A stretch of 64,000 bases of DNA, from the IMG/VR virus record IMGVR_UViG_3300036713_000599, one strand, 5' to 3'. Origin of the DNA: a virus. Taxonomy: Duplodnaviria; Caudoviricetes. Of the stretch, positions 20,083 through 41,412 are shown in pieces (the stretch's first letter is position 1; the number at the start of each line of letters is the position of its first letter). Made by a program: the position numbers and the translations under genes. The notes beneath the pieces were generated by a model. It was not told where the DNA came from. It was given only the letters and a program-made list of their open reading frames with translations, and searched no databases.

Positions 20083-20370
20083 ATGAGTAATTTCAAACTG
20101 AGAAACATCGAAACTGGCGGAGCTACTGGCATGGACGCCCTTTTCGCCAATGAGCCTCAGATCATTAGTCCGGTCGGAGAATCGAAGCCGTCTCCGGCTC
20201 CTAGGCGAATTAAGGTTGCGTCCCTCTCTGGCCTAAAGGGTTTTACACGTGTGGCGTCGGACACTCTTGTGAACAAGGCCACGAATGACTTGTGGGCTCT
20301 TCGTGAGGAGGACGGCGCCTTTTTCATTGAACGCTTATTCCAAGACGACGGTCAACCGCTGAAGGGCTAA
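20083..20370 (+). CDS. Small hypothetical head-associated protein
   Basis: SD AGGAG; contains IKVASL and TRVASD motifs. Confidence 0.6.
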   Translation: MSNFKLRNIETGGATGMDALFANEPQIISPVGESKPSPAPRRIKVASLSGLKGFTRVASDTLVNKATNDLWALREEDGAFFIERLFQDDGQPLKG

Positions 20371-20375
20371 CGGTC

Positions 20376-21608
20376 ATGGGCACCTCGGCGAAAACAGCAG
20401 CTTCCAATAACGAGCCTCGCCAGGCTGAGAAGCGGGATATCCCCAAGGATCATCCATTTGACTCGAAGTCCCTAAAGCCGATGTCTAAGACATTGTGGGC
20501 TTGTAGTGTCGCTTTGGGACACGCTCTTACAGCGTACAGGCACTTTACGAGGCTTAAGTCTGCTACTGTTAGTCCGGACGGTCGGTTGGGTGGAAAGGGG
20601 TATATCCGTGAAATTCCTCAGGTCCGTAGGGATCTTTACGATGTTTGTGAGAAGCTTAGTGCTATTTCTGACACCCTTTTTGACGAGATCAGCGCACCTC
20701 ACTGGAAACCAAAGCTCGCCCTTTTAGACGACAATGAGCAAGAAGACGTCGAAAGGTTCATCGAAGAGTCTAAGAGTGTGCTCGATAATCCCGAAGGAGA
20801 GGTCGAGGAAGAGATTCTGGAAATTGAGCAGGAGAACGATACCAAGTCAGAGCTTCCTGGCGGAGGTGATGTTCCAACCGAGGCACCGTCGAAGGAGACT
20901 ATGAAGCAGGCGTCTGTCGAGGGAGTCTTGTCCCATTTCTTGGGCGAGGCTGCGGGCTCTGACGCCCAAACGGGCGGGCCTCGTGTAGACAACCGTGACC
21001 CTATGGGTGGCGACGGCCCCCACGGTTCATTCAATCCACAGGAAGACGCGACCAGTGACGACTGGGGGCTCGAAGGTGTGCGTGAGTACGACTATAAGGG
21101 TAGCGATATAGTCATTGCTGCCCAACAGTGGGCTCAGACAGTTCTCCCGTTTGACGATACTCCGACTGAGGCATGGGACTGGGGCCTCGGTTACGGTGCC
21201 CGAGGCCAAGGGGCTGGCAACTACGCCAACCCTTCTGGCGAGGGTGGTGGGAAAGGTATTTGGGGGCCCCGCAGCGGGCTTCCTGGTGACTTTCCTCAGT
21301 CCTCGGGAGACTCGGTCGCTCCTGTAGTCGATGTGAGCCTCAATGGGCGCAGGAGCGAGGCTGGGCTTCCAGGGGATGGTGATGACCCTGTGGCTCGCAG
21401 AGACGAGTACGAAGGAGCTAAGGGAAATCTTGTGCAGGCATCCGAGGAGTGGGCACGATCGCTTCCGGACGACATTTTGGCACTCGAAGAAACCGACACA
21501 GGCGTTGATACTGACATAGGCGTCGACACCGACACTGGTTACGTTTACGAGGATCTCTCAACCTCATGGATGCCACTGACGGCCCCTGGGACAACGAGGA
21601 CAGAGTAA
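20376..21608 (+). CDS. Hypothetical protein: helical N-domain plus acidic G/P/D-rich tail
   Basis: 410-aa ORF in the operon; KTAAS and KQASV sites bracket the folded part. Confidence 0.65.
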   Translation: MGTSAKTAASNNEPRQAEKRDIPKDHPFDSKSLKPMSKTLWACSVALGHALTAYRHFTRLKSATVSPDGRLGGKGYIREIPQVRRDLYDVCEKLSAISDTLFDEISAPHWKPKLALLDDNEQEDVERFIEESKSVLDNPEGEVEEEILEIEQENDTKSELPGGGDVPTEAPSKETMKQASVEGVLSHFLGEAAGSDAQTGGPRVDNRDPMGGDGPHGSFNPQEDATSDDWGLEGVREYDYKGSDIVIAAQQWAQTVLPFDDTPTEAWDWGLGYGARGQGAGNYANPSGEGGGKGIWGPRSGLPGDFPQSSGDSVAPVVDVSLNGRRSEAGLPGDGDDPVARRDEYEGAKGNLVQASEEWARSLPDDILALEETDTGVDTDIGVDTDTGYVYEDLSTSWMPLTAPGTTRTE

Positions 21609-23608
21609 TGGCAGGCGAACTTGGCGACATCGGCGGCTTCTTTAGGGAAGGCGGGGCCATCAATCTGGATTGGTTGGACGTGGACGAGGAGGAGTACCGG
21701 AAGCTCGATCGGCTTCCGAAGCAAAACCTCGACATTGTTCCTGATCTTGAGGCACAGTGGCGCCATGACGACACGCCCGCTTCCAGGCTTGTTCCGAATA
21801 CAGGGGGACCAAAAACAATGGTGGATCTCGGGCCTTCTGGACCTGTTCGGGAGGTCCCGGAGGATCTTGTCCGCGCGGCCCGTCTTATCATGGTGCGTAC
21901 GCATGACGCGAGGGCCATCTATGCGGCTCTGACTAGTCGATTTGATGCAGACACTCTTAAGCGATCAGCTTCTGTTTTAAGGCCGGTTTTGGCCGAAAGA
22001 GGACTACTCGGTGGTTTGTATGTGTATGCTTCCGATTTTCCGGACTGTGCTAATTCAAATACCAAGAAGTCCTCTGTGTTTGTGCGCAAGTATGCCCCTG
22101 GTGCTAAGTTTGTTATAGCCAAGAAGTCTTGCGTGGAATGTGTCCACAGACAAACCCTCCCTGATCGAACATCTCGCTGTGGTGTTTTTCACAAACAGGT
22201 GCTTGTGAAAGTGCCTTATTCCGATGAGCTTGCGGAATCTGTTGAGAAGTCACAGGAAGCTAAAGGTGTTACGGCTTCAGAGAAGTCGTCTGATCCGAAG
22301 CGTCGTATCCAACTCGCTATTCTAGGGCAGTCGCGTAATGCTTCGACTTTTACAGGTCGGTTGCAGCCTAAGCCCAAGAAACCTCTAGATAAGGTAGCGT
22401 CGGGGCAGATTCTTGCTGCGTCGGCTCAGCTTGCTAAGGAGAAGGAGACCAGTGCGGCGAAAAGTCTTGCTTCCGCTAAGGCCAGGCCTATTATTTCCCT
22501 TCTTCGTCGAGAGATGATCAAGGGTCGTGGTGAGGCGGAACTGGTACATTCTCTTAAACTTGCTTTCGGTAAGGAGGACCTTCAAGCTCTTCGGCATCAG
22601 TGGGAGCCCGTGTATCGTGAGGCTGGACTCTATGGGGCGGTCTATATCACACAAGGTAGTTTTAGTGATTGTCGTGTGGGTGCCGAATTTCTCAGTAAGC
22701 ACAGATCGAAGGTTCGTGCCGTTGTTGCTGGAGATAAGTGTTCCGGTTGTATTTTTGCTAAGGTCGGTCGGTGTCTTATGTACGGGCGTAAGCTTGTTGC
22801 TCGGAAAGAAGACATTCTCACGACTGAGACAGTGGCTGCCGTCATCGACGAGCATAAAATGGCTGGACATTTGCCAGCGTCTGTCGTAGCAGACGGTCAC
22901 CAGAAGTGGGGCTCGTCGCCCGCTGAACAGCTTAAGGCCATTCACAGGGTGGCTACGAATATTCAACCGACTGCTATGGCACCAGGGTTCCGAGGAGCCG
23001 TCGAGAGAGGGTTTTATGGTGGCCCTGGCGAGCAAATGACGAGCGACCTGACCAAGCGTGATATAGTCTTTGCGGCCAAACGGTACATGAACGAGGGGCT
23101 CTACGGTTCACAGTTGGCGACGGTTCTTAAGGGTCGCTTTGAAACTAGAGATCTGGCCGCCGCTAAAGAGGAACTGGCTGAGGCCCTCGCGGAGCAGGGG
23201 CTTCAAGGCATTAAGTACGTTGATCCTTCAGTTTATCCCGATTACGGGCATGGTTGTGCGACGGCTTCTCGATTGCTCCGACCTAGGGCGGCCGTTAAGT
23301 TCGCTAAGGTTGGCTCAGCTTGTGCCAGCTGTGTTCATCAGTCAATGCCGGGCGTGTGCTCTGTGTTGAATAAGCAGCTTGTGGAGGAACCGCCTTATGT
23401 GGATAAAGCTGCTGAACAGAAAGCCGTTTTGGAGTCCGGTAAGTCTACCGAAGTTAGGTTCGACCAGCTCACGCACAACGGCCTCTCTATGATGGAAGAG
23501 TACGAGCTTCAGCGTTCTGCTTCGGCGGCGTATACCATCGATCTGAATGCTCCTGGTGAGGCCCTTGATGTGGACATTGAGTTTGGGAACCAGGAGATTA
23601 AGTTGTGA
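21608..23608 (+). CDS. Protein with three internal Cys4 repeats
   Basis: The unit E.GL.G..Y.....(F/Y).DC ... C..C.(H/F) ... C....K.L occurs three times; start overlaps the upstream TAA (TAATG). Confidence 0.7.
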   Translation: MAGELGDIGGFFREGGAINLDWLDVDEEEYRKLDRLPKQNLDIVPDLEAQWRHDDTPASRLVPNTGGPKTMVDLGPSGPVREVPEDLVRAARLIMVRTHDARAIYAALTSRFDADTLKRSASVLRPVLAERGLLGGLYVYASDFPDCANSNTKKSSVFVRKYAPGAKFVIAKKSCVECVHRQTLPDRTSRCGVFHKQVLVKVPYSDELAESVEKSQEAKGVTASEKSSDPKRRIQLAILGQSRNASTFTGRLQPKPKKPLDKVASGQILAASAQLAKEKETSAAKSLASAKARPIISLLRREMIKGRGEAELVHSLKLAFGKEDLQALRHQWEPVYREAGLYGAVYITQGSFSDCRVGAEFLSKHRSKVRAVVAGDKCSGCIFAKVGRCLMYGRKLVARKEDILTTETVAAVIDEHKMAGHLPASVVADGHQKWGSSPAEQLKAIHRVATNIQPTAMAPGFRGAVERGFYGGPGEQMTSDLTKRDIVFAAKRYMNEGLYGSQLATVLKGRFETRDLAAAKEELAEALAEQGLQGIKYVDPSVYPDYGHGCATASRLLRPRAAVKFAKVGSACASCVHQSMPGVCSVLNKQLVEEPPYVDKAAEQKAVLESGKSTEVRFDQLTHNGLSMMEEYELQRSASAAYTIDLNAPGEALDVDIEFGNQEIKL

Positions 23609-23985
23609 ACAGGATCACGGCTCGTGTCGTAGCTCGTTACCTCCTTGCCGGCCAGCAGCCGGGGCAGCGTCAACGTATTCGTGAAATGGCCAGGCCTATC
23701 AATAAACCGGAAGGTGTTGACCTCAGTGTGATCGAGGACGAGGGTCGGTCTAAAAGTGAGGGAGATGATACCACTAAACCAGACAAGAACGACATAACAC
23801 CGCGAGACTTATTTTATCCGCCGCTTCCTAAGAATACGGGTGTTCGCAATTTCGCTGAAACTGGAAAAGATCTCTCGGATACTACAGGGATCGAGAAAGA
23901 TAAAGGTTACGAGACGGTCGACAGTCTCAGTCAATACTTGATCAGAACAGAGGGTGGGGGAGAAGGTGGGCCGGAAGGGGTGTAG
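23605..23985 (+). CDS. Hypothetical protein with N-terminal RVVARYL leader
   Basis: GTGA overlap with the upstream stop; begins MNRITARVVARYL. Confidence 0.65.
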   Translation: MNRITARVVARYLLAGQQPGQRQRIREMARPINKPEGVDLSVIEDEGRSKSEGDDTTKPDKNDITPRDLFYPPLPKNTGVRNFAETGKDLSDTTGIEKDKGYETVDSLSQYLIRTEGGGEGGPEGV

Positions 23986-23987
23986 CT

Positions 23988-24635
23988 ATGGCAAATACAG
24001 CTATTACTGACGAAAAAGCTAGTGCGATTCTCGACGAACTTGAGGAGGCAGAGGCGTCTGACCCTGTTGAGCCCAGCGAGCATACTAAGCAGGTTGAGAA
24101 AACGGCTGCAGTGGTGCCTATTCAGACGGCCCCCAAGCGACGGAGAATGGCACCCCTCAAGGTGGATCGGCGTCCAGACTGGGATGCTGTCGAATACCAT
24201 CGTGAGATGCTGAAATGTCAGGCGGAGTTGTCCGACAATAGCGAAGTCGTCAAGGCTATCAGAGCGGATGCGTCCTCCCTCACTAAGCTGCGGGCGCTTC
24301 AAGAACAGATTGCTATGGCAGCGTCTAGTTTGGAGTTCCAGCAATGGGAGCTTCAAAAGCGTCGTAGCTCAGCTAAAGACACGGCTCAGATTATATCTCG
24401 GCGTATCTCGGCCCTCAAAGAGGTTGCGAACATTGAGCGAGAGATCTCTCAGTTTAGTGCCTCGACCTTGAATCTTAGGGATGAACGCCTTCAGAGGATT
24501 TTTGCTATGTTCCTTGAGGTGTTCCGTGATATACTGAACGAGACTTTGCCTGATGAACAGTTCGATCTTATCTGGAACAAGCTGGAAACTGCATTGGAGG
24601 GGTGGGAAAATAAGGCCGACGAGATACTGAGGTAG
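23988..24635 (+). CDS. Putative terminase small subunit
   Basis: All-helical 215-aa protein immediately upstream of TerL (positional inference). Confidence 0.5.
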   Translation: MANTAITDEKASAILDELEEAEASDPVEPSEHTKQVEKTAAVVPIQTAPKRRRMAPLKVDRRPDWDAVEYHREMLKCQAELSDNSEVVKAIRADASSLTKLRALQEQIAMAASSLEFQQWELQKRRSSAKDTAQIISRRISALKEVANIEREISQFSASTLNLRDERLQRIFAMFLEVFRDILNETLPDEQFDLIWNKLETALEGWENKADEILR

Positions 24636-24638: not shown

Positions 24639-27600
24639 GTGGTCGAAAAACGCAACAAGGGTGTAGCCTCGTTAGTTCGGACTGTCGGCCGTGAGGCTAA
24701 GCGGTCTCAGTCCAAGGTCGATTCGAGCGGGGCTCCCAAAATATTTTCGATTCTCGACTACATTGAGGCTCCTTGGGGAATTGGTATGAGCCTGTTCCCT
24801 GCCCAGAGGGTCATTGTTAAACTGTACTACAATTTGCCTCTTGACGAGAAATTACCTGAAGAGGACCATCGTCAGATTAAGATACGGGACATGTTCGGTG
24901 AGAAAGTTCTGTACACTCTCACTGAACGTGAGTACTTGACCTATTTGTATAACGAAGGTCGATGTAACATTGGTGAGCAGGACCACATGCGTCGAGAGTT
25001 GGTCCTTGCAGTCGGTCGCCGTAGCGGGAAATGTGTGTGCCATGATTCTTTGGTTTTGACGGACAAAGGGGTGTTCCAAATTGGTGATTTGGCTGAAGCT
25101 CATGAGGATGACTTTTCGTCATTTGATGTGGGAGTGGTCCAAGAGAAAAGTCGTCGAGCCAGGTCTACTCATTTCTATAATGGTGGCGTGAGGCCGATTT
25201 TTTGTGTGAAAAGCGAGTCTGGTTATTCTATTAAGGGTACAGGGAATCATCGCGTCCGAGTCATGTCCAAGTCAGGCCAGGTGGTGTGGAAGTACCTGGA
25301 CGACATCCGACCTGGTGACTATCTAGCGATCAACAGAACTACGGATCTGTGGGCCTCGGATCTTGTGGATCTTAGGCCATTCCATGACGTGGTTGGCTGC
25401 GAGGAATCGAGCCTGCCCGACCTTTTTGATGAAAAGTGGGGCCGCTTTTTTGGCTACTTGGTGGGTGACGGTAGCTGGAACTACAGTGAGAATCCTGAGA
25501 CACGAGAACGTCTCGGTGAGTTGTATGGTACCCTTTTCGGACTCCATTCGACCTGTACGGGTAAGGGGGTGGAGAATGCCAGGTGTGTTCGGTTTGACGG
25601 TGTGTACCAGTTCTTGGCTAGTCTTGGGTGGGTGGCTGGCTGTGAACGACATGCTAGGACGGTTCCTTGGGCAGTTCTTCGTTCTCCGAGGCATGTTGTG
25701 TGTGCCTTTCTGCGAGGGCTTTTTGAGACAGGCGGCTCAGTGGAGAGCGGGGGAAAACGTATTACATTTTCGACGGCTAGTTTTCGCCTAGTCCGTGAAG
25801 TACAGACCCTTCTTTTGAATCTAGGGATTGTTTGCAGTAGGCGGGTTCGTGAGACTGGTGGGTATCGTGCCGTCCTGAGTGTAAAAGGTTTGAGGTCGCG
25901 GCAACGGTTCGCTAAGTTTGTTGGATTTGACTCTAAGAAGAAACAAGACTTGTTGCTCGAAGCTCTTGAGTGCGCCCAGGAAGGGAATCCAGGTACTGTT
26001 GTGCCTCACCAGCACACAAGAGCCCGGGATTTACTGAATTCAGTCCCACGACTTGAGGGCAACAAGTCGTGCAGACGTCGCCATCTTCGACAAGCCCTCG
26101 GTAGTGTGATTGAGCCTGGTTCGGGTGGAGGCTCGACCTACTCTCGGATGTACGCAGTTGTCGAGGTAGCTAAAGAGCAGGGCGCTGGGAGGCGGGAGAT
26201 TGCCCATTTCGAAGAACTGCTTCATCAAGACTATTTTTTCGATCCTGTGGTATCCGTCGAAGAAGGGGAGGATCAGGTATACGATTTGGTTGTACCTGAC
26301 GGGAAGTCTTTTGTGGCAAATGGTCTAACCAACCACAACACAGCCCTTTCCGGTATTTTCGCAAGTTACGAGGTCTACAGGCTACTCAACTTGTACAACC
26401 CTCAGGAGTACTTTGGGCTGCCGAACGGTAACCGTATTCAGCTTATCAGTATTGCTACGGATAAGGACCAGGCAGGGTTGTTGTTCAATGAAGTGACTAG
26501 CCACATAGCGAAATGTGACTATTTTGCTCCCTACCTTGCGAGTAATACACAGGGTTGGGTAAACTTTCGTACACCGTACGACATCGAGAAATACGGCCCA
26601 AATATTCGACAGGAGGACGGTAAGTTTGTATCCCTCAACGGGAAAGCGTCTTTAAGGGTCACGTTCAAATCTTGTATCGCTAAAGGGCTTCGTGGATCGG
26701 GCAACATTGTCATTATTCTCGATGAGGTCGCCCATTTTCTAGACAAGGGCGGTAGCTCTGCAAAAGAGATCTACGAAGCGGTGACACCCTCGAAGGCTGC
26801 TTTTTCTAGGAAGGACCCCAAAACTAAACGTGCGTGGGTCGATCCAGATACAGGCGAGGTGGCCCCTGTTGAGTCCCGAGTTATTTTGATCTCTAGCCCG
26901 CTCGGCAAGTCAGGTAAATTTTACGAGAAGTTCCAACAGGCTATGGGTGGAGGTGAGGGTTCAGAAAATATTCTCGCCATCCAGGCCCCCACTTGGGAGG
27001 TCAACCCTACCGTTCCTTCGAGCGCCTTTCGGGAGGCGTATCACGCTGACCCTCATACGTATGCTACTGAATATGGGGCTAATTTCAGTGATCAGTCTGT
27101 TGGGTGGATTGAGCGGCAGGGAGATCTTCTGGCGTGTGTTGATCCCGAAAGAAGGCCTCTTTTGCGGGGGCGCCCTAGGGCACCTCATCAGATGGGTATC
27201 GATGTTGGGCTTGTGGACGACGGCACTGCTGTCGTCATTACTCATATTGAAGACGACAAGGTTGTCCTCGACTATCACGAGATATGGTATGCGGGAAAGG
27301 ATTGGCGGGAAACAAATCCGCATTTGGGTTCGAACTTTACGACGGATTATGCTAAGACTCTCAGTGACGTGGAGCGTTTGGACTTCGACGCCATTGCTGA
27401 CTGGATCTCTACCCTGTGTTCTCGTTTCCATATCACAGCTGGACTATTCGATCGGTGGAACGGTATTCCACTTGAGCAGACATTGCATAAGCGAGGACTT
27501 AAGCAATTTAATGCCCAATTCTTTACCAGAGACGCCACCTCTAAGCTTTTTCAGACGACCAAACTCATGATGTTTGACGAATGTTTGGATTTTTATGACT

Positions 27601-27956
27601 ATCCTGTCCCGGAGACAGGCCCCGAAGACGAACGGCACTCGGGCCTTATTCGAGAGCTTTTCTCTCTCCAGTCTAAGCAGATCAGTAAGAATGTTGTCGT
27701 CGTGGAGGCCCCGAAGCGGCGTGGGGCACACGATGACATGAGCGATGCTTTAGTCAGAAGTATTTGGTTGAGTGTGGAGGCCATGCTTAACTCCAAGCAT
27801 GCCTCTAGGGGACGTTCCAGTACGAATCGACTTCGTACTGTTTCTGCCATGACTCCGTCAAGATATCAAGCGATTAGGTCGAGACGTCGCGGTAGAGGAG
27901 ATCGTGTAGCTCCGACACCTCGATCGTTTGTCAGGGGAGGTTTTCGTGGCACATAA
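24639..27956 (+). CDS. Terminase large subunit containing an intein
   Basis: After intein removal: Walker A GRRSGK|T, Walker B IVIILDEVAH, ISSP motif, RNase H nuclease MGIDVG and HDDMSDA. Confidence 0.92.
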   Translation: MVEKRNKGVASLVRTVGREAKRSQSKVDSSGAPKIFSILDYIEAPWGIGMSLFPAQRVIVKLYYNLPLDEKLPEEDHRQIKIRDMFGEKVLYTLTEREYLTYLYNEGRCNIGEQDHMRRELVLAVGRRSGKCVCHDSLVLTDKGVFQIGDLAEAHEDDFSSFDVGVVQEKSRRARSTHFYNGGVRPIFCVKSESGYSIKGTGNHRVRVMSKSGQVVWKYLDDIRPGDYLAINRTTDLWASDLVDLRPFHDVVGCEESSLPDLFDEKWGRFFGYLVGDGSWNYSENPETRERLGELYGTLFGLHSTCTGKGVENARCVRFDGVYQFLASLGWVAGCERHARTVPWAVLRSPRHVVCAFLRGLFETGGSVESGGKRITFSTASFRLVREVQTLLLNLGIVCSRRVRETGGYRAVLSVKGLRSRQRFAKFVGFDSKKKQDLLLEALECAQEGNPGTVVPHQHTRARDLLNSVPRLEGNKSCRRRHLRQALGSVIEPGSGGGSTYSRMYAVVEVAKEQGAGRREIAHFEELLHQDYFFDPVVSVEEGEDQVYDLVVPDGKSFVANGLTNHNTALSGIFASYEVYRLLNLYNPQEYFGLPNGNRIQLISIATDKDQAGLLFNEVTSHIAKCDYFAPYLASNTQGWVNFRTPYDIEKYGPNIRQEDGKFVSLNGKASLRVTFKSCIAKGLRGSGNIVIILDEVAHFLDKGGSSAKEIYEAVTPSKAAFSRKDPKTKRAWVDPDTGEVAPVESRVILISSPLGKSGKFYEKFQQAMGGGEGSENILAIQAPTWEVNPTVPSSAFREAYHADPHTYATEYGANFSDQSVGWIERQGDLLACVDPERRPLLRGRPRAPHQMGIDVGLVDDGTAVVITHIEDDKVVLDYHEIWYAGKDWRETNPHLGSNFTTDYAKTLSDVERLDFDAIADWISTLCSRFHITAGLFDRWNGIPLEQTLHKRGLKQFNAQFFTRDATSKLFQTTKLMMFDECLDFYDYPVPETGPEDERHSGLIRELFSLQSKQISKNVVVVEAPKRRGAHDDMSDALVRSIWLSVEAMLNSKHASRGRSSTNRLRTVSAMTPSRYQAIRSRRRGRGDRVAPTPRSFVRGGFRGT
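25032..26339 (+). mobile_element. Intein (436 aa) with LAGLIDADG endonuclease domain, inserted in the TerL Walker A
   Basis: Begins CVCHDSLV directly after GRRSGK; block B TGNHRV; LAGLIDADG-like GYLVGDG and FLRGLFETGG; ends VYDLVV...FVANGLTNHN with Thr at +1. Confidence 0.93.
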
Positions 27957-28191
27957 AACTCCGCTCACCTTTGCCGACAAGTCAATTCGTCAATTCGCTG
28001 ATAACATGTTTGGTGAATCTCTCATGATTCTGCCGGCCGACTATCTGTTGATGCGCACAGTGTTTCGTCATTTGAGGGGTACATGGGAGGCCGTGTTTGT
28101 CGGTGACGTGAAGCAGGTGGGTCTCCTTAGCAAGGTTGTTCAGACTTGGGGGAATAACAAGAAGGATCAGCGAAAGATACAGGTGGCTTGA
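27946..28191 (+). CDS. Small hypothetical protein
   Basis: GTG at 27946 after GGGAGG; its stop overlaps the next start. Confidence 0.5.
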   Translation: MAHKTPLTFADKSIRQFADNMFGESLMILPADYLLMRTVFRHLRGTWEAVFVGDVKQVGLLSKVVQTWGNNKKDQRKIQVA

Positions 28192-28709
28192 TGCCGGAGG
28201 TAGTTCGAGATCGGGATCTGATCATTTTTAAGAAGGGTGATGCGTATACTGTGGCAGTCAGTGGCGCTACTGCCCAGCAGGGTTGGGTCGGAGGCCAGGG
28301 CGGCCAATGGTTCGACTCTTCGTGTGATCGGTTCACCGTGGAGCTTACGGACGGTGCGGCTAACGGCTTTTTTCTGCGTGGTTCTGACGAGGATGGTGAT
28401 AAATACACTTCGATGACTCGGAATCAGCCCTATTATCGCTACTGTGTTTTCGGATTTGGTGGGTGGCTCGTGGCTACCCGATCTTTTGAGAGGTATACTT
28501 ACGCGAGTCGGCTTTCTGGTCCTCTTGTCGAGAATACTTATCAGGAGCAGGACGAGGTGGTTTTCTCTTTACGTGGGTTGTTCACAACAGAGGATGAGTG
28601 GACTCTGTCTGGTGACCCTCGTGCTCCGAACACTAATGTGGTTGGTGTGGTGGTCAAATCACCTTCAGATTTGACCGGCAACTATATCACCTTGCAGGTA
28701 AGGATCTGA
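28191..28709 (+). CDS. Putative capsid decoration paralog 1 (beta-tulip-like)
   Basis: Paralog of 28709..29221 (AYTVAV..GWVGGQG..GSDEDGD.YT..NQ); its C-half resembles 35967..36590. Confidence 0.55.
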   Translation: MPEVVRDRDLIIFKKGDAYTVAVSGATAQQGWVGGQGGQWFDSSCDRFTVELTDGAANGFFLRGSDEDGDKYTSMTRNQPYYRYCVFGFGGWLVATRSFERYTYASRLSGPLVENTYQEQDEVVFSLRGLFTTEDEWTLSGDPRAPNTNVVGVVVKSPSDLTGNYITLQVRI

Positions 28710-29221
28710 TGGTTGAGATCTTCCGTTCTCGTGACTGCGTCGTCTTTTATAAGGATGATGCCTATACTGTGGCGGTCGACGACACGCTTGTGTCAGAGGG
28801 CTGGGTTGGGGGCCAAGGAGTCCAGTGGGTAGCCTCCTCTTCGGAGTTCACTGTGACTCGGTCTATCGGCTTCTTTGGTGGATTTCTTGTGTGGGGTTCT
28901 GACGAGGATGGTGACAGATATACGGCTGTCACTCAAAATCAGCTATATTATCGTTTCGCTACAATGCTTTCTGGGGCCTGTCTTATCAGCACCTCCACGT
29001 ATGAACAACATACGTGGTCTTCTCGTCAGGCAGGGCCCTTGGTACCTAACACCTTCGCTGCGAACCAGAAGTTGTACTTATCTCTCCGTGGTTACTGGAC
29101 CCCAGAGGATGAATTGTCGGCGTCAGGGCACCCAAGTGCTCCCGCCCCTCTTGCTGGTGTTGTTGCCCGACTACCCAAGGCCCAGAATGGTTGGTCCCTT
29201 GGGATCCAGACGGTGATGTGA
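28709..29221 (+). CDS. Putative capsid decoration paralog 2 (beta-tulip-like)
   Basis: Tandem paralog of 28191..28709 with long identical stretches at the protein level. Confidence 0.55.
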   Translation: MVEIFRSRDCVVFYKDDAYTVAVDDTLVSEGWVGGQGVQWVASSSEFTVTRSIGFFGGFLVWGSDEDGDRYTAVTQNQLYYRFATMLSGACLISTSTYEQHTWSSRQAGPLVPNTFAANQKLYLSLRGYWTPEDELSASGHPSAPAPLAGVVARLPKAQNGWSLGIQTVM

Positions 29222-32536: not shown

Positions 32537-33244
32537 ATGACGATTGACTATTGGCAACTCGCAAAGGACTTCGCTGCAGGTGACATAGTGCAGCGGCTTC
32601 TTCCGGGGCAAGGTATCTCGCCCTTCTCTGGTCGTGTCCTCGCATCCTTACCTGGTTTAGGTGTCGTGGACGTCCAATGGCCTTACGGTTCGGAGAGAGT
32701 TTTTTCCGATGAGCTGCTGAAGGTAGACCCTCGTTTTGGTTACTACCTGCCCCCTACTCTTACTTTTGATTATTTTCCTGGGCTGGATGTTGTTAAACAG
32801 GCGTCCGTGAACAAGTGGCGGACTACTGAGGTGCCTGCAGGATTCCACAAGGAACTAGCTCGGTTATTTAGTAGAGGGTCAAACGAGATTCAGGCGTACA
32901 ATGAGTTGTGGCATCGTTACGCATCATATTCTCATGATGATGCACTGCGAGACGAGGTCGACAAATTTTACCGCTTTGCTTCCAATACTCTCGATCTGTA
33001 TCTTCAGGCGACTGTTGCTAAGACAGCTACCTATTGGATGGCCCAGAATCGGCAACACCGGGCCACGCGTAAAGAGCTATTGGCAAAGTGCCCTAACTGC
33101 CCTCGCTGTGGCACGGCTATGCGTCGCACTACGTACAAGATGCGAGAGGGGCAGAAGATGCGCCTTTTTGCGTGCCCTGTGGATCTCTTCATTATAAAGA
33201 GGGGTGACATTTTTGGGCCCGACGGTAATCCCGTGGAGTGGTAA
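32537..33244 (+). CDS. Hypothetical protein: SH3-like N-domain plus C-terminal Zn ribbon
   Basis: GDIVQ...GRV...VDVQWPYGSERV; C-terminal CPNCPRCG...FACP. Confidence 0.6.
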   Translation: MTIDYWQLAKDFAAGDIVQRLLPGQGISPFSGRVLASLPGLGVVDVQWPYGSERVFSDELLKVDPRFGYYLPPTLTFDYFPGLDVVKQASVNKWRTTEVPAGFHKELARLFSRGSNEIQAYNELWHRYASYSHDDALRDEVDKFYRFASNTLDLYLQATVAKTATYWMAQNRQHRATRKELLAKCPNCPRCGTAMRRTTYKMREGQKMRLFACPVDLFIIKRGDIFGPDGNPVEW

Positions 33245-33245
33245 T

Positions 33246-34721
33246 ATGGCTTTTTCGAAGTACGCCAACGCAGCTGTTGTTAAGCCTGCCATCACCATGG
33301 ATGCGTGGGACACGGTTCGAGCTAATGCAATGCAGCTCGGACCCGCTTTTGGTGCCCGAAAGTCTTCTGGGGCTGTACTTCAAAAATTCCATCCTGACCA
33401 ATATTTACTCAGCCATTGTACTATCATAGCCTCTGTGGACACAGAGGAACCCTCTGATGTCAAGCTAGGGGCTCAGATGGTAGATGGTTTCCAGATCAAC
33501 CGTAAGTACGGCGACTACCTAATCACTCCTGAGACAAGTCCTTGGATTAACAATAATTTTGATAGCTGGGAAAGAAAACTTTTGCTCGCAACATACCCCA
33601 CTTTTACTGGTGGTGAAAACTATGTTGAGCACTTACAGATTCCTGAGTTATCTAAAGGTAAGATCTTAGATGCTGCAGCACGGGACATTGGAGACTCTAT
33701 ATACGTCGACATCCTTGTAGCTACGAGTCGTAAACACCGCCCCTTGATTGAGGCGGTAGAGTCTGGTGAGCTTCAGACACTGTCGATGGGCGCACGGGTA
33801 GCATTTACCATTTGCTCTAAGTGCGGGAATGTTGCTGCTGACGAGACTGAACTGTGTCAGCACATCAAGTACCAGAAAGGTAACAACTTTACTGACGAGC
33901 TAGGTAAGGTCCGAAAGATTGCTGAGATCTGCGGACACGTGACAGCAGAGCCCGGAAGTGTTGAATTCGTAGAAGCTTCTTGGGTTGCTAACCCCGCCTT
34001 TACAGGTGCTGTTCTTCGCAACATCCTCGCTCCTGACCAGATAAAGGCTCTTGGATCCCGTGCTCAGGTAGCCTTCTCTCGTCTTCCTGGGGTTGTGGAC
34101 AATGATTCGATGCGGCGAGTCGCGAGTCTTGCTTTTGACCTCGGTGACCAAGGCCAGGATCAAGAAGAACCTGTGCCGAAGCCTCAGAAAGATCTTTTAG
34201 AAGAAGCTGTTGGTGATGTCGCGGACTATCTCCGAGAGCAGGCATTGAAAAAGGTTCGTGAGGAGATGGGTGGAGGGGAAGTCCCGGAAGCTGATCTCCA
34301 GGAAAACCTCAATGAGACTCTAGTGAAGGAAGCCACGTCTAGTCCCCAGTGGTGTGCCATATCTAAAGCTGTGGTCACTAAACTAGGATCGGGACCGTTG
34401 ACTAGACGTATTTTGTTCGGCTTTCTTTTATACCGTCGTGGTGGTTGGAAGTGTGTTCAAGCTGCCAAAAAGCTTAAGGGTGTGGACTTTCTAGCTATGT
34501 CTCGATTCATCGATTCATTCCAAGGCGTTCCTAAGATCGCAGGAGAGTCTCGTTTGTATCGTGCTGTCGTCGCTGTAGGCGGGTATGCACCATACGAAGA
34601 TGAAAAGAGCTATTTGGCCGCGTGTCGTCGAGTACTAGGTAGGGAATTAATGAGGTCCGAGCAGGACACTCTGTTGGCTAAGGGGAGATTGTACGACCTT
34701 GGGGCTCCCGGGATGTCGTGA
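33246..34721 (+). CDS. Prohead (capsid maturation) serine protease with Zn-finger insertion
   Basis: NNNFD, NYVEHLQ (His), YVDILVAT, TLSMG (Ser), CSKCGN..LCQH insert, EFVEASWVANPAF; located between portal and scaffold. Confidence 0.82.
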   Translation: MAFSKYANAAVVKPAITMDAWDTVRANAMQLGPAFGARKSSGAVLQKFHPDQYLLSHCTIIASVDTEEPSDVKLGAQMVDGFQINRKYGDYLITPETSPWINNNFDSWERKLLLATYPTFTGGENYVEHLQIPELSKGKILDAAARDIGDSIYVDILVATSRKHRPLIEAVESGELQTLSMGARVAFTICSKCGNVAADETELCQHIKYQKGNNFTDELGKVRKIAEICGHVTAEPGSVEFVEASWVANPAFTGAVLRNILAPDQIKALGSRAQVAFSRLPGVVDNDSMRRVASLAFDLGDQGQDQEEPVPKPQKDLLEEAVGDVADYLREQALKKVREEMGGGEVPEADLQENLNETLVKEATSSPQWCAISKAVVTKLGSGPLTRRILFGFLLYRRGGWKCVQAAKKLKGVDFLAMSRFIDSFQGVPKIAGESRLYRAVVAVGGYAPYEDEKSYLAACRRVLGRELMRSEQDTLLAKGRLYDLGAPGMS

Positions 34722-34761
34722 TTCTCTTTATATGCTCATAGAAGGCAGGAAAGGTGATATC

Positions 34762-35889
34762 ATGCGTAAGCGTACCACTTGGGTTTCATCGAAGGGAGCT
34801 TCCGAAAAGAAGGCAGAAGATCCCCGTGCCATGAACCAGGACCATTTGCAGCAGCAGCCGTCGGCTGACAAGTATACGATAGGCGGCCCATCAGAGTTTG
34901 CTGAGGACGTACATCCGTCTGCTGACACCTGGGAATCAGAGGACGAGGGTGGTGAGACTAAGCGGAATGAAATAGGGATGCCCGAGTTCCGTGACGACAC
35001 TTTCAAGCACGCTGGCGTCGACATGGAGACTCTGTACAAGAAGGGTAATATATGTCTCCGTGTTGCCCGCCACATGCTCCCGTCTGCAGATGATGAGACC
35101 CTTGAGTTCCAGGCTGCTGCTTTGATGCACCTTCCTGATCAGGACCTGGTTGAAACCGTTGGTCGTATTCAAACGGCCGGAAAGGTCCCGCCCGAGTTTC
35201 TTGAGCAGCAGGAGAAGATGAAGGAAAAGGCCGAGGACAAGAAGGAAGAAAAAGAAGAAAAGGCGGACAAGAAGGAAGCTTCTGAAAACGTAGAGCCTGA
35301 GCAGGTTGCGGAAGAAGAGACGGAAGAAGAGAAGGAAGAAGAAGAGAAGGAAGAAGAAGAGAAGGCTCAGGACAAGGAAGCTTCTTGCGGGCAGATGTTC
35401 TCAATGGAGCAGATGCAGGAGATGGTGAACCAGGCTGTCCAGGCCAAGATGGACGCCATGCAGGCGCCCGCCTCACAGATGTCTGAAGTCCAGAGCGATG
35501 AGGAAATCCTCGATCAAATGCTTCAGGACGACTTGGAGCCTGCCCAGACCTCTGAGATGGACCTTCAACTTGAAGGTGCTCCGATGAATATCGACGAGGT
35601 CCAATTTGACCAGGATGAGAGCGACGTCCTCTCGTCTTTGTTCGCGAACCACTCTGAAGTTCTTCAGGCCCAACAGGCCCAGACCCTTCAGGGCGGTGTT
35701 CCGGTAGTTCCTGTTGCACTTCCTGTAACAAAGAATGCTTCTACTCGGACGGTCGGCACACGACCGTCCGGCGGTGTTTCACAGATCGGTGGGGCAGGTG
35801 CTTCCGCTGAGACAAACAGCAACGATGTCGACTCCTTGTCTAGTATGTGGAAGTCGGCTCCTGATGTATCTGGCGTCTTTAACCCCTAA
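34762..35889 (+). CDS. Putative capsid scaffolding protein
   Basis: Very acidic, E/K low-complexity protein between the protease and the decoration/MCP genes; SD AGGAAAGGT. Confidence 0.65.
   Translation: MRKRTTWVSSKGASEKKAEDPRAMNQDHLQQQPSADKYTIGGPSEFAEDVHPSADTWESEDEGGETKRNEIGMPEFRDDTFKHAGVDMETLYKKGNICLRVARHMLPSADDETLEFQAAALMHLPDQDLVETVGRIQTAGKVPPEFLEQQEKMKEKAEDKKEEKEEKADKKEASENVEPEQVAEEETEEEKEEEEKEEEEKAQDKEASCGQMFSMEQMQEMVNQAVQAKMDAMQAPASQMSEVQSDEEILDQMLQDDLEPAQTSEMDLQLEGAPMNIDEVQFDQDESDVLSSLFANHSEVLQAQQAQTLQGGVPVVPVALPVTKNASTRTVGTRPSGGVSQIGGAGASAETNSNDVDSLSSMWKSAPDVSGVFNP
35311..35367 (+). repeat. Coding tandem repeat (GAAGAAGAGAAGGAA)n
   Basis: About three 15-nt copies encoding EEEKE in the scaffold gene. 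Confidence 0.7.
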
Positions 35890-35966
35890 GTTGAGACCCC
35901 AGTGGTTCCCTAAATGAAAATGAAGATTTCAGTCAACCCTAGCCAGTCTCGTAAGGAGAAGAGAAT

Positions 35967-36590
35967 ATGGCTCTGAATCAAGGTCAAGGCTCGGGCGACT
36001 TCGCGGAGATGAGTGGTAGAATTCATCTGTTCCACATGGGGATTCGCAACTCGATGGGTATCCTCACGGCAGATGCTTTCACCCAGGCAAATCCGCCAAT
36101 CGTCACGACAGCCGCAAACGTTTCAACAACTCTTAGTGGGATCTCCAAAGTGGGTGTCCTCGGTGCTTCGGTCGCGTTCACACGGCCGGATGCGGGCAAC
36201 GGCTATCATGGCGGACCCGTACAAGTCGGCTCAGCATATGTTGCCGGCCAAAAGCCCCTCGGTCTTTTTCTCAATGACGCTGTCGGCAATGCGTACGAGA
36301 ACACTCCTGGAGTCGCCTCCGGTCGTGGGCCTTACGCCTCAGGCCAAGGCGTTGTCGGAGTCTCTCTCTGGGAGACGCAGCAACAGGTCGGCGGATCCGC
36401 CGCCCTTACTTACGCATCTGGAGACGAGCTGTACGCTTCAGTTAACGGCTTGCTCACGAATCGTATTGAGGACGCCTACGAGTATAACGTCGTTGGTCAA
36501 AATGACCCCGATTTTGTGACCATTGTAGGAATTCTCAAGGTCGCCCCTGACGCTAACAACTCCCTGATGGTGTTGGATCTTCGGATCTAG
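35967..36590 (+). CDS. Capsid decoration (cement) protein
   Basis: 207 aa directly upstream of the MCP, strong SD; KPLGLFLNDA..TYASGDELYASVNGLLT..VGIL..AP pattern. Confidence 0.7.
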   Translation: MALNQGQGSGDFAEMSGRIHLFHMGIRNSMGILTADAFTQANPPIVTTAANVSTTLSGISKVGVLGASVAFTRPDAGNGYHGGPVQVGSAYVAGQKPLGLFLNDAVGNAYENTPGVASGRGPYASGQGVVGVSLWETQQQVGGSAALTYASGDELYASVNGLLTNRIEDAYEYNVVGQNDPDFVTIVGILKVAPDANNSLMVLDLRI

Positions 36591-36634: not shown

Positions 36635-37516
36635 ATGAACCAGCAAATCAGTAACGAGCAAAAACAAAAGGTCATCTCGGAGTACATCAAAACAGCAGCC
36701 GGTCGTGCGAAGCTTGCAGCTTCTATGATCCAGCCGCTCCGTCTTCGTCGTGACTACACGGCCGTAGGCCGCAAGACGTTCGCCGTCGAAAGCTTGCCGG
36801 ACGCGGCACTCCCCATTTACGACAAGGACCCTGAGGTCACCGCATTCGTCGTGGGCGAAGAAGGCGAGAACGTTCTTGCTATTCAAAAGTCCCGCCGCGT
36901 CATCTTCTCTTTGTTCGAGATCGCTTCGAACCCTGAGATTCCGTTCACTCAGGTCAAGGAGCGCCGCTTCGATTTGATTGAACGTTCTCAGGATCTTGCC
37001 AAGGCCCAGATTCAGGCTGCCGAAGATGAGCGAGTATTCGCTGTCCTTGATAGCATCGCTGTCTCTGGCTTCGACAACCTTCCGGGTCAGACTAACCCTG
37101 ACATTGCTGTTGTTGCTCCTATCTCCCCGAGCGTCCTCGCTGATGCTTTTGCTGAGATAGAACGTCACGACCTGCGTGTCGCCCGCATCTATATGAATGC
37201 GGTTGACTATGCTGATATCCGGAAGTTCGGACGGGATGTTCTCGACATCGAATCACAGGCAACTCTCCTGAAGACTGGTCTCCAGGCCACCTTGTGGGGG
37301 GCGCAAATCATCACCAGTCGCTTGGTTCCGGCCGGTTACGTGTATGCGTGCGCGGAAGCCGAAAACTTCGGCCGCTTCCCTGTTCGTACGGAACTTACGG
37401 TCCTTTCTGCCGACGACCCGAAGACCAGGACTATCGGGTTCTCCTGCTTCGAGAATGTTGGGATCGGGGCGTTCAATCCTCGTGGGTTGACCCGCATGGT
37501 TGTCACCCGTTTCTAG
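36635..37516 (+). CDS. Major capsid protein (short HK97-fold type)
   Basis: Position after protease/scaffold/decoration genes; strong SD AGGAGA; followed by a terminator; helix/E-loop/P-domain-like pattern (FDLIERSQDLAK..IQAAEDERVF, RIYMNAVDYADI, LWGAQIITSRLVPAG). Confidence 0.85.
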   Translation: MNQQISNEQKQKVISEYIKTAAGRAKLAASMIQPLRLRRDYTAVGRKTFAVESLPDAALPIYDKDPEVTAFVVGEEGENVLAIQKSRRVIFSLFEIASNPEIPFTQVKERRFDLIERSQDLAKAQIQAAEDERVFAVLDSIAVSGFDNLPGQTNPDIAVVAPISPSVLADAFAEIERHDLRVARIYMNAVDYADIRKFGRDVLDIESQATLLKTGLQATLWGAQIITSRLVPAGYVYACAEAENFGRFPVRTELTVLSADDPKTRTIGFSCFENVGIGAFNPRGLTRMVVTRF

Positions 37517-39530: not shown

Positions 39531-40592
39531 ATGTTCGACAAAAGCAAGAAAGCTGGAGCCACGGTCTACCTGGTCGAAGAGTTGAGTGATGCTCGTATGC
39601 GGTGTGACCAACTTATTCGGCAGGTCGGTGATGCGACCCGGTTGGTTGAGGGTAGTCCCCACCGAGAGGCTGTTTTTGAGGCTGCCGGGCACCTTTTGTA
39701 TACGATCCCGCACACACTTTTTCGGCTCCAGAAGGCTCTCCAAGCAGCCGCACTCGCCACGAACAGGCTTGACTCAGAGGAGATCAAATCGGATCTCCGC
39801 CCTGAGAAGGTGCGACAGTTAGAGGACGTTTTGGAAGACGTTAGGATTCGGCAAATCAAGAGACACTCGGAGAATACTATGATTGACCCCAAGGATAGAA
39901 TTTGGAACGCGGACACTCCGATTCCCAGTAAGGTTGCTTTTGACGAGTATCCGAAGATGAATCGGCTTGCTCAAAATATTGCAGTGGCGTTAGACACTAT
40001 CAAAAAAGACGGTGAGGCGCTACTCAAGGAAATAGGTCGTGTCGACATGTCGGGGATTGACACGGAGATGGATGAAGGGGGCTTGAGACGTCTCGTTCAA
40101 GTGGCAAGTAGGGCTCGCAACACCCTTTTTGGTTGGGGAGGGATGACTTTCGTTGACAAATACGCATCAGACGAGGAGAAGGCAGGCCGCTTCGAGGAAG
40201 GTAAGCCAGCGGACCCTACGAAGAATATGTCTCCTGAAGACAAGAAAAAGTGGGAGTATTACAAGGACGAGAATAGGGACGAGTTCAAGAAGAAGGCGTA
40301 CGACTATGGTCGTGTGTTAGCAGGTCTTCCTAAGGCTGAGGTGAAAAAAGTTACGCCTCTTGAACGTAATCATCCTGAGAGTCGTGGGGTTTCAGGGTTG
40401 GCGACCATTGAGGGCTACAAGGGCAAGATAGAGGTTATCCGGGGTCCTAATGGCGGCATCACGACCAGGAACAAAGGTCGGAAAATACCAACCCCTCAAC
40501 AGACAAATGCGGCTATTAAGGCGTTCAAGCAAGCACTAGAAAAGAGCCAGTGGTCTTATGTTCTGGAGGACCACCCAAGCCCCTGGAAATAA
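39531..40592 (+). CDS. Hypothetical multi-module protein punctuated by K-x-A sites
   Basis: KKAG, KVAF, KYAS, EKAG and KKAY separate short modules; an in-frame SD+ATG lies at 39879. Confidence 0.65.
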   Translation: MFDKSKKAGATVYLVEELSDARMRCDQLIRQVGDATRLVEGSPHREAVFEAAGHLLYTIPHTLFRLQKALQAAALATNRLDSEEIKSDLRPEKVRQLEDVLEDVRIRQIKRHSENTMIDPKDRIWNADTPIPSKVAFDEYPKMNRLAQNIAVALDTIKKDGEALLKEIGRVDMSGIDTEMDEGGLRRLVQVASRARNTLFGWGGMTFVDKYASDEEKAGRFEEGKPADPTKNMSPEDKKKWEYYKDENRDEFKKKAYDYGRVLAGLPKAEVKKVTPLERNHPESRGVSGLATIEGYKGKIEVIRGPNGGITTRNKGRKIPTPQQTNAAIKAFKQALEKSQWSYVLEDHPSPWK

Positions 40593-40608
40593 GGTGAAGA
40601 GCCCTTTT

Positions 40609-41412
40609 ATGTCTAGTCCTTTCTACTATGAGGGGCTGCGCGTTCTCGGGGAGTCTGGGCTCCCTGAAGGTCCTCCCGCTCAGAAGGGGGTGGCTATCGA
40701 CCCTGGTATTCCTGGGACGAAGACATATGTCAAGCCACTAGACGACTCGACTTCGCAGCCGAAAGAGGGTGAGCCGTCTGGGAGGGATCTCGTTGACATC
40801 CTCAGGGAAAAGGGTCGTACTGACGAGAATAGTCCTTATTACGACACGAGTTATATGGGGCTTGGTCCTTCGGACAACTCTAAAACAAAGTACCCTTACC
40901 GAGACGGTATACCGAACAGACATAATGCGTCGGCTCGGTTCGCAGTACACCTCTGGTTGTTGTCAAAAACATCTTCAAGGTACTTTAGGTCATCTGAGGT
41001 TGTTAGGGTCGCTGCAACCCAAGAAGAAGTTTTGTCGAACCTCTCTGGGAAAGTGACACAGAAAGCGTCCGCTTGCACTGCAACCCTGAAACGGGCGGAC
41101 ACTAAGAATCTTCGGTGGACCTTTAGCGTGGATTGCGGTAATGGGCCGAAGGCTGTGAAGGTTAAGGCTATTCGCCCAAGAAAGAATGTTACAGCATTTG
41201 GCAAGCTTGAACTTCAGTTGGCATGTTCTTGCCCTGCCTGGCAGTGGCTTGGTCCAGAATACCACGCTAAGGGTCAGAAATATCTCTTGGGTAAGCCCCG
41301 CGGCACTGCGACGACCCCAGATGTCCGTGACCCGGACAGGGTGAACAAGGTATGTAAACACGTTGCTGCAGCCCTTCTTGTCACGAAGGGATGGAAGATA
41401 CCAAAAAAATGA
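40609..41412 (+). CDS. SWIM zinc-finger protein
   Basis: LACSCPAWQW...VCKHVAAAL (CxC-Xn-CxH). Confidence 0.75.
   Translation: MSSPFYYEGLRVLGESGLPEGPPAQKGVAIDPGIPGTKTYVKPLDDSTSQPKEGEPSGRDLVDILREKGRTDENSPYYDTSYMGLGPSDNSKTKYPYRDGIPNRHNASARFAVHLWLLSKTSSRYFRSSEVVRVAATQEEVLSNLSGKVTQKASACTATLKRADTKNLRWTFSVDCGNGPKAVKVKAIRPRKNVTAFGKLELQLACSCPAWQWLGPEYHAKGQKYLLGKPRGTATTPDVRDPDRVNKVCKHVAAALLVTKGWKIPKK

Follow-up and report, generated by a model that had tools for sequence, protein, structure and literature searches.

A conserved K/R-x-Ala motif in the head proteins of a huge phage, the probable cleavage signal of its prohead protease

Introduction

The head genes of the virus IMGVR_UViG_3300036713_000599 (Duplodnaviria; Caudoviricetes) share a short motif, Lys or Arg followed by any residue and Ala (K/R-x-A), which recurs from protein to protein. 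This raises the question of whether the motif is the code by which a prohead protease of the phage recognizes and cuts its head proteins. The window analyzed is a stretch of 64,000 nucleotides, bases 72097-136096 of one 240,951-bp contig on which nearly all genes lie on the + strand. All positions given here are those of the window. A preliminary description of region 20083-41412 had proposed K/R-x-A followed by Ser, Ala or Gly as a candidate protease code. The tetrapeptides it listed are all found in the open reading frames (ORFs) named for them, and some of the positions it gave are those of motifs instead of ORF starts (34116 is the RVAS of the protease, 36689 the KTAA of the capsid protein).

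Comparison of orthologs presents the motif as a conserved feature of head proteins. It probably serves, in the extended form hydrophobic-x-K/R-x-A, as the recognition and cleavage signal of the phage's own prohead protease.

Motif enrichment in the head proteins

Viral contigs were scanned for relatives, the capsid protein and a terminase profile serving as queries, which yielded 160 loci with up to 10 kb on each side. Viral-contig scans with single replication proteins (10757-12016 and 16510-18315) found no relatives, and the control families were taken from the terminase-profile scan. Orthologs were aligned for 28 window proteins, at 30-65% identity, and pairs of conserved columns were tallied for each residue class and spacing. 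For [KR]-x-A, 28 such pairs were found where 10.4 are expected (p 4e-6), the highest rank among all residue classes at offsets 1-4. The excess of [KR]/Ala pairs is seen at offset +2 only, the remaining offsets from -5 to +5 giving 4-13 pairs where about 10 are expected. Most pairs belong to the head core (31511-36590; 19 vs. 4.9, p 1e-6), and the ORFs at 20083-24635 contribute 8 (vs. 2.3). In the controls, one pair each was counted in the non-virion, replication-side genes 14554-20074 (1.2 expected), in the terminase (1.2) and in the neck and tail proteins (1.8).

Motif frequencies over all orthologs follow the same division. The ratio of observed to expected [KR].A[SAGTNQ], where a dot stands for any residue, is 2.65 in the head core, 2.43 in ORFs 20083-24635 and 2.06 in the portal, compared to 0.85 in replication-side proteins, 1.05 in the large terminase (TerL) and 1.01 in neck and tail proteins. 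The decoration protein stands at 0.32. This head-to-replication comparison had been suggested in the preliminary description, and its outcome (2.4-2.7-fold in the head groups, 0.85-1.05-fold in the replication-side, TerL and neck/tail proteins) agrees with what was anticipated there. In head-group orthologs, [KR].A before a small residue is found 2.52 times as often as expected, rising to 3.76 times with a hydrophobic residue at P5. The corresponding control values are 0.97 and 0.83. Spacings other than +2 give 0.92-1.40 in the head groups, an acidic P3 gives 0.72, and Gly or Ser at P1 gives 0.91-0.95. Position P1' tolerates hydrophobic residues (1.15) and avoids Pro (0.60). Its most frequent residue is Ser, followed by Ala, Arg, Lys, Gln, Thr and Asn; the restriction first proposed, to Ser, Ala or Gly, does not hold. 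Judged from these alignments, the motif class is a conserved, head-protein-specific feature, better written as hydrophobic(P5)-x-K/R(P3)-x-A(P1) followed by a small or polar residue.

The single genome agrees in direction. In the 21 ORFs of 20083-41412, K.A[SAG] occurs 22 times, compared to 7.8±2.8 in within-protein shuffles (z 5.0), and in the remaining 237 ORFs of the 241-kb genome it occurs 64 times, compared to 55 in shuffles. As the pattern had been chosen after the data had been seen, an unbiased scan of all 8000 a.bc patterns was run on the head-region ORFs of the window, in which K.AS ranks first (11 vs. 2.2) and AS is the first dipeptide. The head ORFs show no excess of the T4- and phiKZ-type patterns [LI].E, [SAG].E and A.E (z 1.3, -1.2 and -1.3). 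The case from this one genome is suggestive, not proven, because the Bonferroni p for K.AS is only 0.15.

Individual sites fare unequally. About 17 of the 29 sites listed in the preliminary description are kept in at least 65% of orthologs, where the background is 6-22%, and about 12 are not. Roughly 40% of these sites, as far as alignments can tell, are chance hits in their behavior. The caution given with the list, that K-x-A is short enough to occur by chance, is therefore justified for individual non-conserved sites.

The prohead protease

The enzyme that would read this motif is encoded within the head module, and its features are as follows.

33246-34721, + strand: prohead protease, with the start MAFSKYAN fixed by orthologs (longest ORF from 33204)
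33258-33269, + strand: K-Y-A-N, protease residues 5-8, candidate cut A/N, in 90% of orthologs vs. 13% background
about 33384-34037, + strand: catalytic domain, followed by an acidic linker
33624-33980, + strand: candidate catalytic residues His143 (VEHLQ), Ser194 (TLSMG) and Glu257 (FVEAS), numbered from the ORF start at 33204
33813-33866, + strand: CxxC...CxH zinc-ribbon-like insertion, between the candidate catalytic Ser and Glu
34116-34127, + strand: R-V-A-S (aa 305-308), where the catalytic domain gives way to the acidic linker; candidate site of self-release
about 34317-34703, + strand: helical C-terminal domain
34326-34337, + strand: K-E-A-T, candidate cut A/T at the start of the helical C-terminal domain, 76% vs. 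13%

The protein is matched by PHROG 18299, 'head maturation protease' (E 1e-10). No Pfam family matches it at E <= 0.01, and a profile search of PDB sequences gave no match. A homolog search of 1.84 billion representatives returned 1529 clusters (50% identity) at E <= 0.001. In a full-length model built with 28 close homologs, the helical C-terminal domain is confident and the catalytic domain is poor, with a predicted local distance difference test (pLDDT) score of about 50; stretch 286-329 has a low pLDDT and is disordered. With 75 more diverse homologs, the catalytic domain was modeled at pLDDT 84.9 and a predicted template modeling score of 0.80. An exhaustive VIA-align search with this domain placed four proteases at the top: those of varicella-zoster virus (Z 11.0; 129 residues aligned, root-mean-square deviation 3.6), phage T4 (gp21, Z 9.7; 121 residues, 2.1 Å) and human cytomegalovirus (HCMV; Z 8.5), as well as Kaposi's sarcoma-associated herpesvirus (Z 6.9). 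The next matches, at about Z 6, are unrelated MCE domains. Foldseek ranks the same families first, weakly (E 0.01-0.6). According to this model, the protease has the herpesvirus assemblin / T4 gp21 fold.

The candidate catalytic His, Ser and Glu, in this order along the sequence, are invariant in both the 28 and the 75 homologs, and they are also kept in phage G gp19, Tunturi_5 gp331 and Myrna gp97. Phage G, Tunturi_5 and Myrna share the conserved CxxC...CxH insertion with this phage, and we know of no insertion of this type in assemblin or T4 gp21.

The RVAS at 34116 is the most conserved instance of the motif. All 58 orthologs have [KR]xA at this position, and among 151 homologs, representatives of 50%-identity clusters, 142 have [KR].A located 30-60 residues past the PAFxGA anchor, compared to 53±6 in shuffles. 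At P5, these representatives have L, M or F, at P2 mostly Ala, and at P1' Ser (54), Ala (22), Arg (16) or Lys (12). The nine without [KR].A mostly retain x-x-A-S. The same protease tail reads K-V-A-S in Tunturi_5 and K-I-A-S in phage G. The site falls within the low-pLDDT stretch 286-329, and the acidic content (D+E) rises from 11% upstream of the post-domain site to 25% downstream. By analogy with T4 gp21, the phiKZ-group proteases and the R-site of assemblin, the RVAS is best read as a putative self-release site. The KYAN lies in a segment modeled as unstructured at the N-terminus. The KEAT is the weaker candidate, because its P1' is mostly Leu in relatives.

In several relatives, the protease gene is broken at several positions by insertions of about 400 residues, of which the window copy has none. 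Such genes are found at L004:5122-7959, L070:5051-8020, L026:4740-7844 and L055:1920-4703, as well as among many database homologs, and one homolog of 1963 aa shows up to five matched stretches. From their sequences, the insertions look like multiple independent inteins in the prohead protease. The long homologs were considered as polyproteins, and this was rejected, as they are the same protease interrupted by inteins. With no polyprotein in the window and no fusion among these homologs, the polyprotein-like head cargo once envisaged for this lineage is not supported.

Scaffold and major capsid protein

The scaffold and the capsid protein carry the following sites.

34762-35889, + strand: scaffold-like acidic low-complexity protein, start MRKRTTW according to orthologs
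34792-34803, + strand: K-G-A-S, conserved
35005-35016, + strand: K-H-A-G, conserved
35374-35385, + strand: K-E-A-S, conserved
35731-35742, + strand: K-N-A-S, conserved
36635-37516, + strand: major capsid protein, HK97 fold, 293 aa (phrog_2522, E 1.5e-50)
36689-36700, + strand: K-T-A-A, capsid-protein aa 19-22, inside the predicted propeptide
36710-36721, + strand: K-L-A-A, capsid-protein aa 26-29, predicted maturation cut A28/A29, mature start Ala29

The four conserved scaffold sites are retained in a fraction of 0.73-0.91 of orthologs, compared to a background of 0.19. The first KEAS (35272-35283, aa 192) is not conserved in these alignments. Over 65 orthologs, the motif reaches 3.45 times its expectation in this protein. 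One scaffold position reads KTAA, KTAT, KTAQ, KTAS, KTAG, KHAG or RQAS across relatives, while its flanks drift. An element of the form T-[RK]-T-A-S-T-R is invariant and lies ~50 residues ahead of the conserved C-terminal tail.

The sole experimental N-terminus of a capsid protein in this family is that of phage G, whose 282-residue protein is shortened to 255 residues according to N-terminal sequencing (PMC5646251, Hua et al. 2017, Table 1). No other paper came up when N-termini of Bxz1-type capsid proteins were sought in the literature. Since 27 residues are lost, the cut falls after Ala27, EGRVALA/QAMANP. This site aligns without gaps to AGRAKLA/ASMIQP in the window and to GRQKLA/ASLGP in Tunturi_5. 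The phage G datum shows that cutting after Ala occurs in this capsid-protein family, and in the window it points to the KLAA.

The preliminary description had singled out the KTAA at aa 19-22 as the capsid-protein site. This tetrapeptide is indeed kept in the close clade and in Tunturi_5; phage G has E-T-E-E there, and the proven phage G cut aligns with the KLAA seven residues downstream. Going by the alignment, the KTAA may mark an additional cut in the propeptide, or none. Both it and the KLAA are retained in 65% or more of the orthologs.

The predicted mature body of the capsid protein (36722-37516) contains no [KR].A[small] motif, and the family of the neighboring decoration protein is poor in it (13 vs. 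40.6 over 66 orthologs). This scarcity would fit avoidance of the motif in proteins that stay intact, in sequences too alike for a test of it.

Sites in other head proteins

The remaining candidate sites are spread over the portal, the head core and proteins without an assigned role.

20212-20223, + strand: K-V-A-S, candidate cut A/S, aa 44-47 of the 95-aa protein 20083-20370
20391-20402, + strand: K-T-A-A, candidate cut A/A, aa 6-9 of protein 20376-21608, retention 0.72 vs. 0.08
20904-20915, + strand: K-Q-A-S, candidate cut A/S, aa 177-180 of protein 20376-21608
29828-29839, + strand: R-T-A-N, candidate cut A/N, in the variable N-terminal tail of the portal (29675-31489)
32795-32806, + strand: KQAS, weaker site in protein 32537-33244, retention 0.65 vs. 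0.17
33020-33031, + strand: K-T-A-T, candidate cut A/T, aa 162-165 of head-core protein 32537-33244, retention 0.89 vs. 0.17
41005-41016, + strand: R-V-A-A, candidate cut A/A, aa 150-153 of protein 40558-41412

The KVAS at 20212 divides a variable N-terminal half from a conserved C-terminal domain. It is retained at 0.75 (background 0.10), orthologs reading [KR]-[VI]-[AG]-[ST], and the motif is 4.1-fold over expectation in 22 orthologs of this protein. The orthologs of protein 20376 are laid out as N-terminal tag, K-T-A, domain, acidic linker, K-Q-A-S and domain. Their KTAA is preceded by an RVxARY-type tag, which is absent from the window copy. The KQAS forms a conserved island at the end of the acidic, poorly conserved linker between the two conserved domains; its P1' is Ser in 14 of 15 orthologs, with a flank conservation of just 0.28.

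In the portal, the RTAN directly precedes a Gly-rich stretch and the conserved core. [KR]xA is found within ±3 residues of this place in 69% of 70 orthologs, compared to 7% background, and distant portals have KKAS, KTAS, RTAS, KVAY or KYAT here, in a tail that is otherwise unalignable. Protein 32537-33244 reaches a ratio of 3.5 over 56 orthologs. The RVAA at 41005 has an invariant Ala and, in 28 of 30 orthologs, a K/R, with flanks at 0.41 and a retention of 0.93 (background 0.06). In the same protein, aa 219-232 weakly match a SWIM zinc finger (E 5e-4, 19.9 bits, right at the Pfam cut-off). The KKAY of the 39531 ORF is kept in at least 65% of orthologs. Retention is at or near background for the RVAS at aa 56 of the 20083 ORF, the KVAS and RNAS of the 21566 ORF, the KTAA of the 23988 ORF, the RTAS of the 29191 ORF, the KTAS of the 31511 ORF and the KVAF, KYAS and KKAG of the 39531 ORF.

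At the conserved sites, the alignments resemble those of cleavage sites, one example being the scaffold position at which the motif is kept while its flanks drift. Many sites had been described as separating folded from disordered segments. This description agrees with the protease sites, the KQAS of protein 20376 and the RTAN of the portal, but other conserved K-x-A lie within folds.

Other lineages and N-terminal tags

The motif is also in excess in the head module of Tunturi_5 (31 vs. 15.9, z 4.2), with 15 copies in a 'DNA ejection protein' and nine in the protein at the scaffold position. Myrna has 25 (vs. 13.0, z 3.3). The head module of phage G has 13 (vs. 7.7, z 2.0), five of them in its protease.

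Myrna gp97 (L083:3677-7312, 1211 aa), annotated as 'tape measure', begins with a homolog of the prohead protease (31% identity over ~200 residues) and holds 13 [KR].A[small] motifs. Judging from this arrangement, gp97 seems to be a long head protein with a protease fused to it, and not a tape measure.

RVVARY-type tags are rare in the gene calls of this genome, with three matches. The tag is found on protein 23605-23985 (at 23605-23652) and on a 115-aa protein at 63800 (63800-63850). It does not stand regularly beside K-x-A in this genome, and protein 23605 has no K-x-A nearby.

Proposed maturation pathway and alternative explanations

A pathway can be proposed that begins with the serine protease, of the assemblin / T4 gp21 fold, being incorporated into the prohead. 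A first cut at R-V-A/S would separate the catalytic domain from the linker and C-terminal domain of the enzyme itself. The scaffold would then be chopped at four or five K-x-A sites, among them a conserved T-K/R-x-A-S about 50 residues from the C-end, where the cut would detach a conserved capsid-binding tail. In a third step, the 28-residue propeptide would be taken off the capsid protein at K-L-A/A. Finally, the N-terminal tail of the portal, the head-core proteins of 31511-33244 and two or more proteins of 20083-24635 would be trimmed. With conserved candidate sites in its proteins, the latter block looks to encode head-internal proteins. That the cuts are the work of this protease, that they fall at every conserved site and that the events come in this order is inferred.

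Several results weigh against so simple a pathway. In the phage G site, R-V-A-L-A/Q, P3 is Ala and P5 is Arg; a basic P3 is therefore a preference at most and not obligatory. The specificity first suggested, basic at P3 and Ala at P1, has indirect, converging backing from the conserved head motif, the neighboring assemblin-fold protease and the phage G cut as regards Ala, and has to be relaxed at P3. Conserved K-x-A also occur inside folded domains, namely R-K-I-A-E at aa 237-241 of the protease, L-R-Q-A-Q at aa 354 of the portal and R-V-A-R at aa 181 of the capsid protein. As cuts, these are not plausible, so that having the motif does not suffice for a cut, and not every instance marks one. 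The spacing is less strict than the total suggests: at offset +4, ORFs 20083-24635 have 8 pairs (vs. 2.2), equal to +2, so that the specificity for +2 fails in this block. Over the head groups, +4 is mildly raised (1.40-fold), and hydrophobic-x-K-x-A also suits an amphipathic helix. The orthologs counted are not independent events, and K.AS did not survive correction in the single-genome scan.

Some of these observations would be accounted for if the motif were an uncut module, such as a peptide for docking or targeting that the scaffold, the portal or the capsid interior would read, or a feature of helices. The instances in folded regions agree with this, as do the i/i+4 spacing of the hydrophobic residue and Ala, which fits one face of a helix, the slight rise at +4 and the portable address tags of this genome and its relatives. 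However, the capsid-protein cut in phage G falls precisely behind the aligned Ala, many sites lie at the ends of disordered linkers and not in helices, P1' avoids Pro and prefers small residues, and the fold family of the protease contains enzymes specific for Ala at P1. A non-proteolytic module is therefore considered unlikely. Alternatively, the cuts could be made by another enzyme, of the host or of the phage, with the neighboring assemblin-like protease having a different specificity. The link between enzyme and substrate is indeed made by inference, and phage G encodes several proteases (PMC12484599). Against this, the motif accompanies this protease family over Bacillus-type, Acidobacteria and Mycobacterium hosts, its most conserved instance is in the protease's own tail, and the x-x-Glu motifs of T4 and phiKZ type are not enriched here. 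A different enzyme seems quite improbable.

Least probable of all, with only a slight chance of being right, is an origin in composition, Lys, Ala and Ser being common in low-complexity head proteins and the pattern having been picked post hoc. The non-conserved share of the listed sites and the Bonferroni result would be expected from it, and elsewhere in the genome, too, [KR].A[SAG] lies mildly over shuffles (z 3.9, owing to R.A[SAG]). Within-protein shuffles and per-protein expectations take out composition, however, and the excess is limited to offset +2 and to head proteins, with controls of the same contigs lacking it. The motif moreover recurs in three distant lineages and in the tails of most protease homologs. 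Chance is largely refuted for the motif as a class, and stands for individual non-conserved sites. Cleavage by the prohead protease at hydrophobic-x-K/R-x-A thus remains the probable explanation.

Gene order and relatives

The remaining genes of the region are arranged as follows.

20083-24635: five ORFs without family match
24639-27956: TerL with an intein (Pfam Intein_splicing, E 3.5e-16; LAGLIDADG_3, E 2e-13)
27928-29685: small ORFs
29675-31489: portal
31511-32506 and 32537-33244: two head-core proteins without assigned role
35967-36590: decoration protein, at the same gene position as phage G gp26
up to 41412: proteins of unassigned role, followed by neck and tail genes

The protease gene sits between the portal and the scaffold and capsid genes, an order shared by phage G and Tunturi_5. 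The starts of the longest ORFs are probably wrong for the protease (33204 instead of 33246) and the scaffold (34699 instead of 34762). The terminase intein, with a LAGLIDADG endonuclease, lies at about aa 139-567.

When the whole region was compared to a phage collection by megablast, no match was found. The nearest kin by capsid protein is the uncultured 485-kb phage LR745208 (79.5% identity), followed by the major head protein of Tunturiibacter phage Tunturi_5 (47%) and gp27 of Bacillus phage G (37%), with cluster C mycobacteriophages such as Myrna (27%) further away. By its capsid protein and protease, the phage is placed among the huge phages.

Significance

The literature searched, which did not extend to the 2020 phage G capsid study, contains no published K/R-x-A motif or phage G-like cleavage consensus. 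We file the motif as a new specificity within the theme of prohead-protease cleavage codes, in which the fold and the logic are known, and Ala at P1 with a usually basic P3 would be new. The protease homologs define a very large clade, with 1529 or more clusters at 50% identity; phage G and Tunturi_5 belong to it, as do, at a greater distance, the cluster C mycobacteriophages. It is conceivable, though more tentative, that this huge-phage clade has a single code, hydrophobic-x-K/R-x-Ala/small, which would act alongside portable N-terminal tags in the loading, release and trimming of head proteins and cargo.

If this is true, Ala-specific cutting would be the closest counterpart in a bacterial virus of herpesvirus assemblin specificity, cutting after Ala would look old in this protease clan, and the virion cargo of uncultured huge phages would become predictable from sequence. 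A validated K/R-x-Ala rule would yield the boundaries of mature proteins for capsid structure work and flag the proteins of uncultured huge phages that are packed in the head and probably injected. It would also tie phage and herpesvirus capsid maturation by substrate specificity, not by fold alone. The rule is directly testable because cultivable relatives exist.

Comparison with known systems

Herpesvirus assemblin (MEROPS S21; pUL26 of herpes simplex virus and pseudorabies virus, UL80a of HCMV) has the consensus V/L/I-x-A/S, and the best structural matches of the phage protease are herpesvirus proteases. The pseudorabies virus enzyme cuts after Ala at the sites YLQA-T and VQA-S (PMC4498786). 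The motif statistics of the phage, with Ala at P1, Ser as the commonest P1' and no enrichment of Gly or Ser at P1, would fit the same preference for Ala before a small hydroxyl residue, and the phage G cut is A/Q. The RVAS right behind the protease domain, followed by a linker, resembles the R-site, and the conserved scaffold site near the C-terminal tail resembles the M-site, which detaches the scaffold from the capsid protein. The phage motif differs in its Lys or Arg at P3 and hydrophobic P5, the residues before Ala being hydrophobic or polar in herpesviruses. The phage enzyme probably has Glu in place of His as its third catalytic residue, its catalytic domain contains the CxxC...CxH insertion, and there are many more predicted substrates. 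A nested protease-scaffold gene of the herpesvirus type was ruled out: the C-terminal domain of the protease shows no similarity to the scaffold (E 2.6) and is no copy of it, and the scaffold is a separate gene.

T4 gp21 (S77) belongs to the same fold clan, which also takes in HK97 gp4 (S78). As with T4 gp21 and phiKZ gp175, one short motif appears to be reused in the capsid protein, the scaffold or core, the C-terminus of the protease and internal proteins. In SPN3US, cleavage occurs after A-x-E and includes C-terminal autocleavage (PMC5694885). The predicted P1 is Ala here, in contrast to the Glu of T4 gp21 (I/L-x-E), phiKZ gp175 (S/A/G-x-E) and SPN3US gp245 (A-x-E), and no sequence similarity to the T4 and phiKZ enzymes was detected (no Pfam family, no PDB sequence match). 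The order of tag, putative cleavage site and putative cargo in the orthologs of protein 20376 recalls the capsid targeting sequence of T4. Both the tag and the cut motif are unrelated in sequence to those of T4, and the window copy is without the tag.

The closest comparison is with phage G (gp19 and gp27). It differs in the Ala at P3 of its capsid-protein site and in the weaker enrichment of its head module (z 2.0). Its capsid protein, protease and portal are homologous to those of the window, and its capsid protein loses 27 residues ending in Ala, at the position aligned to the K-L-A/A predicted here.

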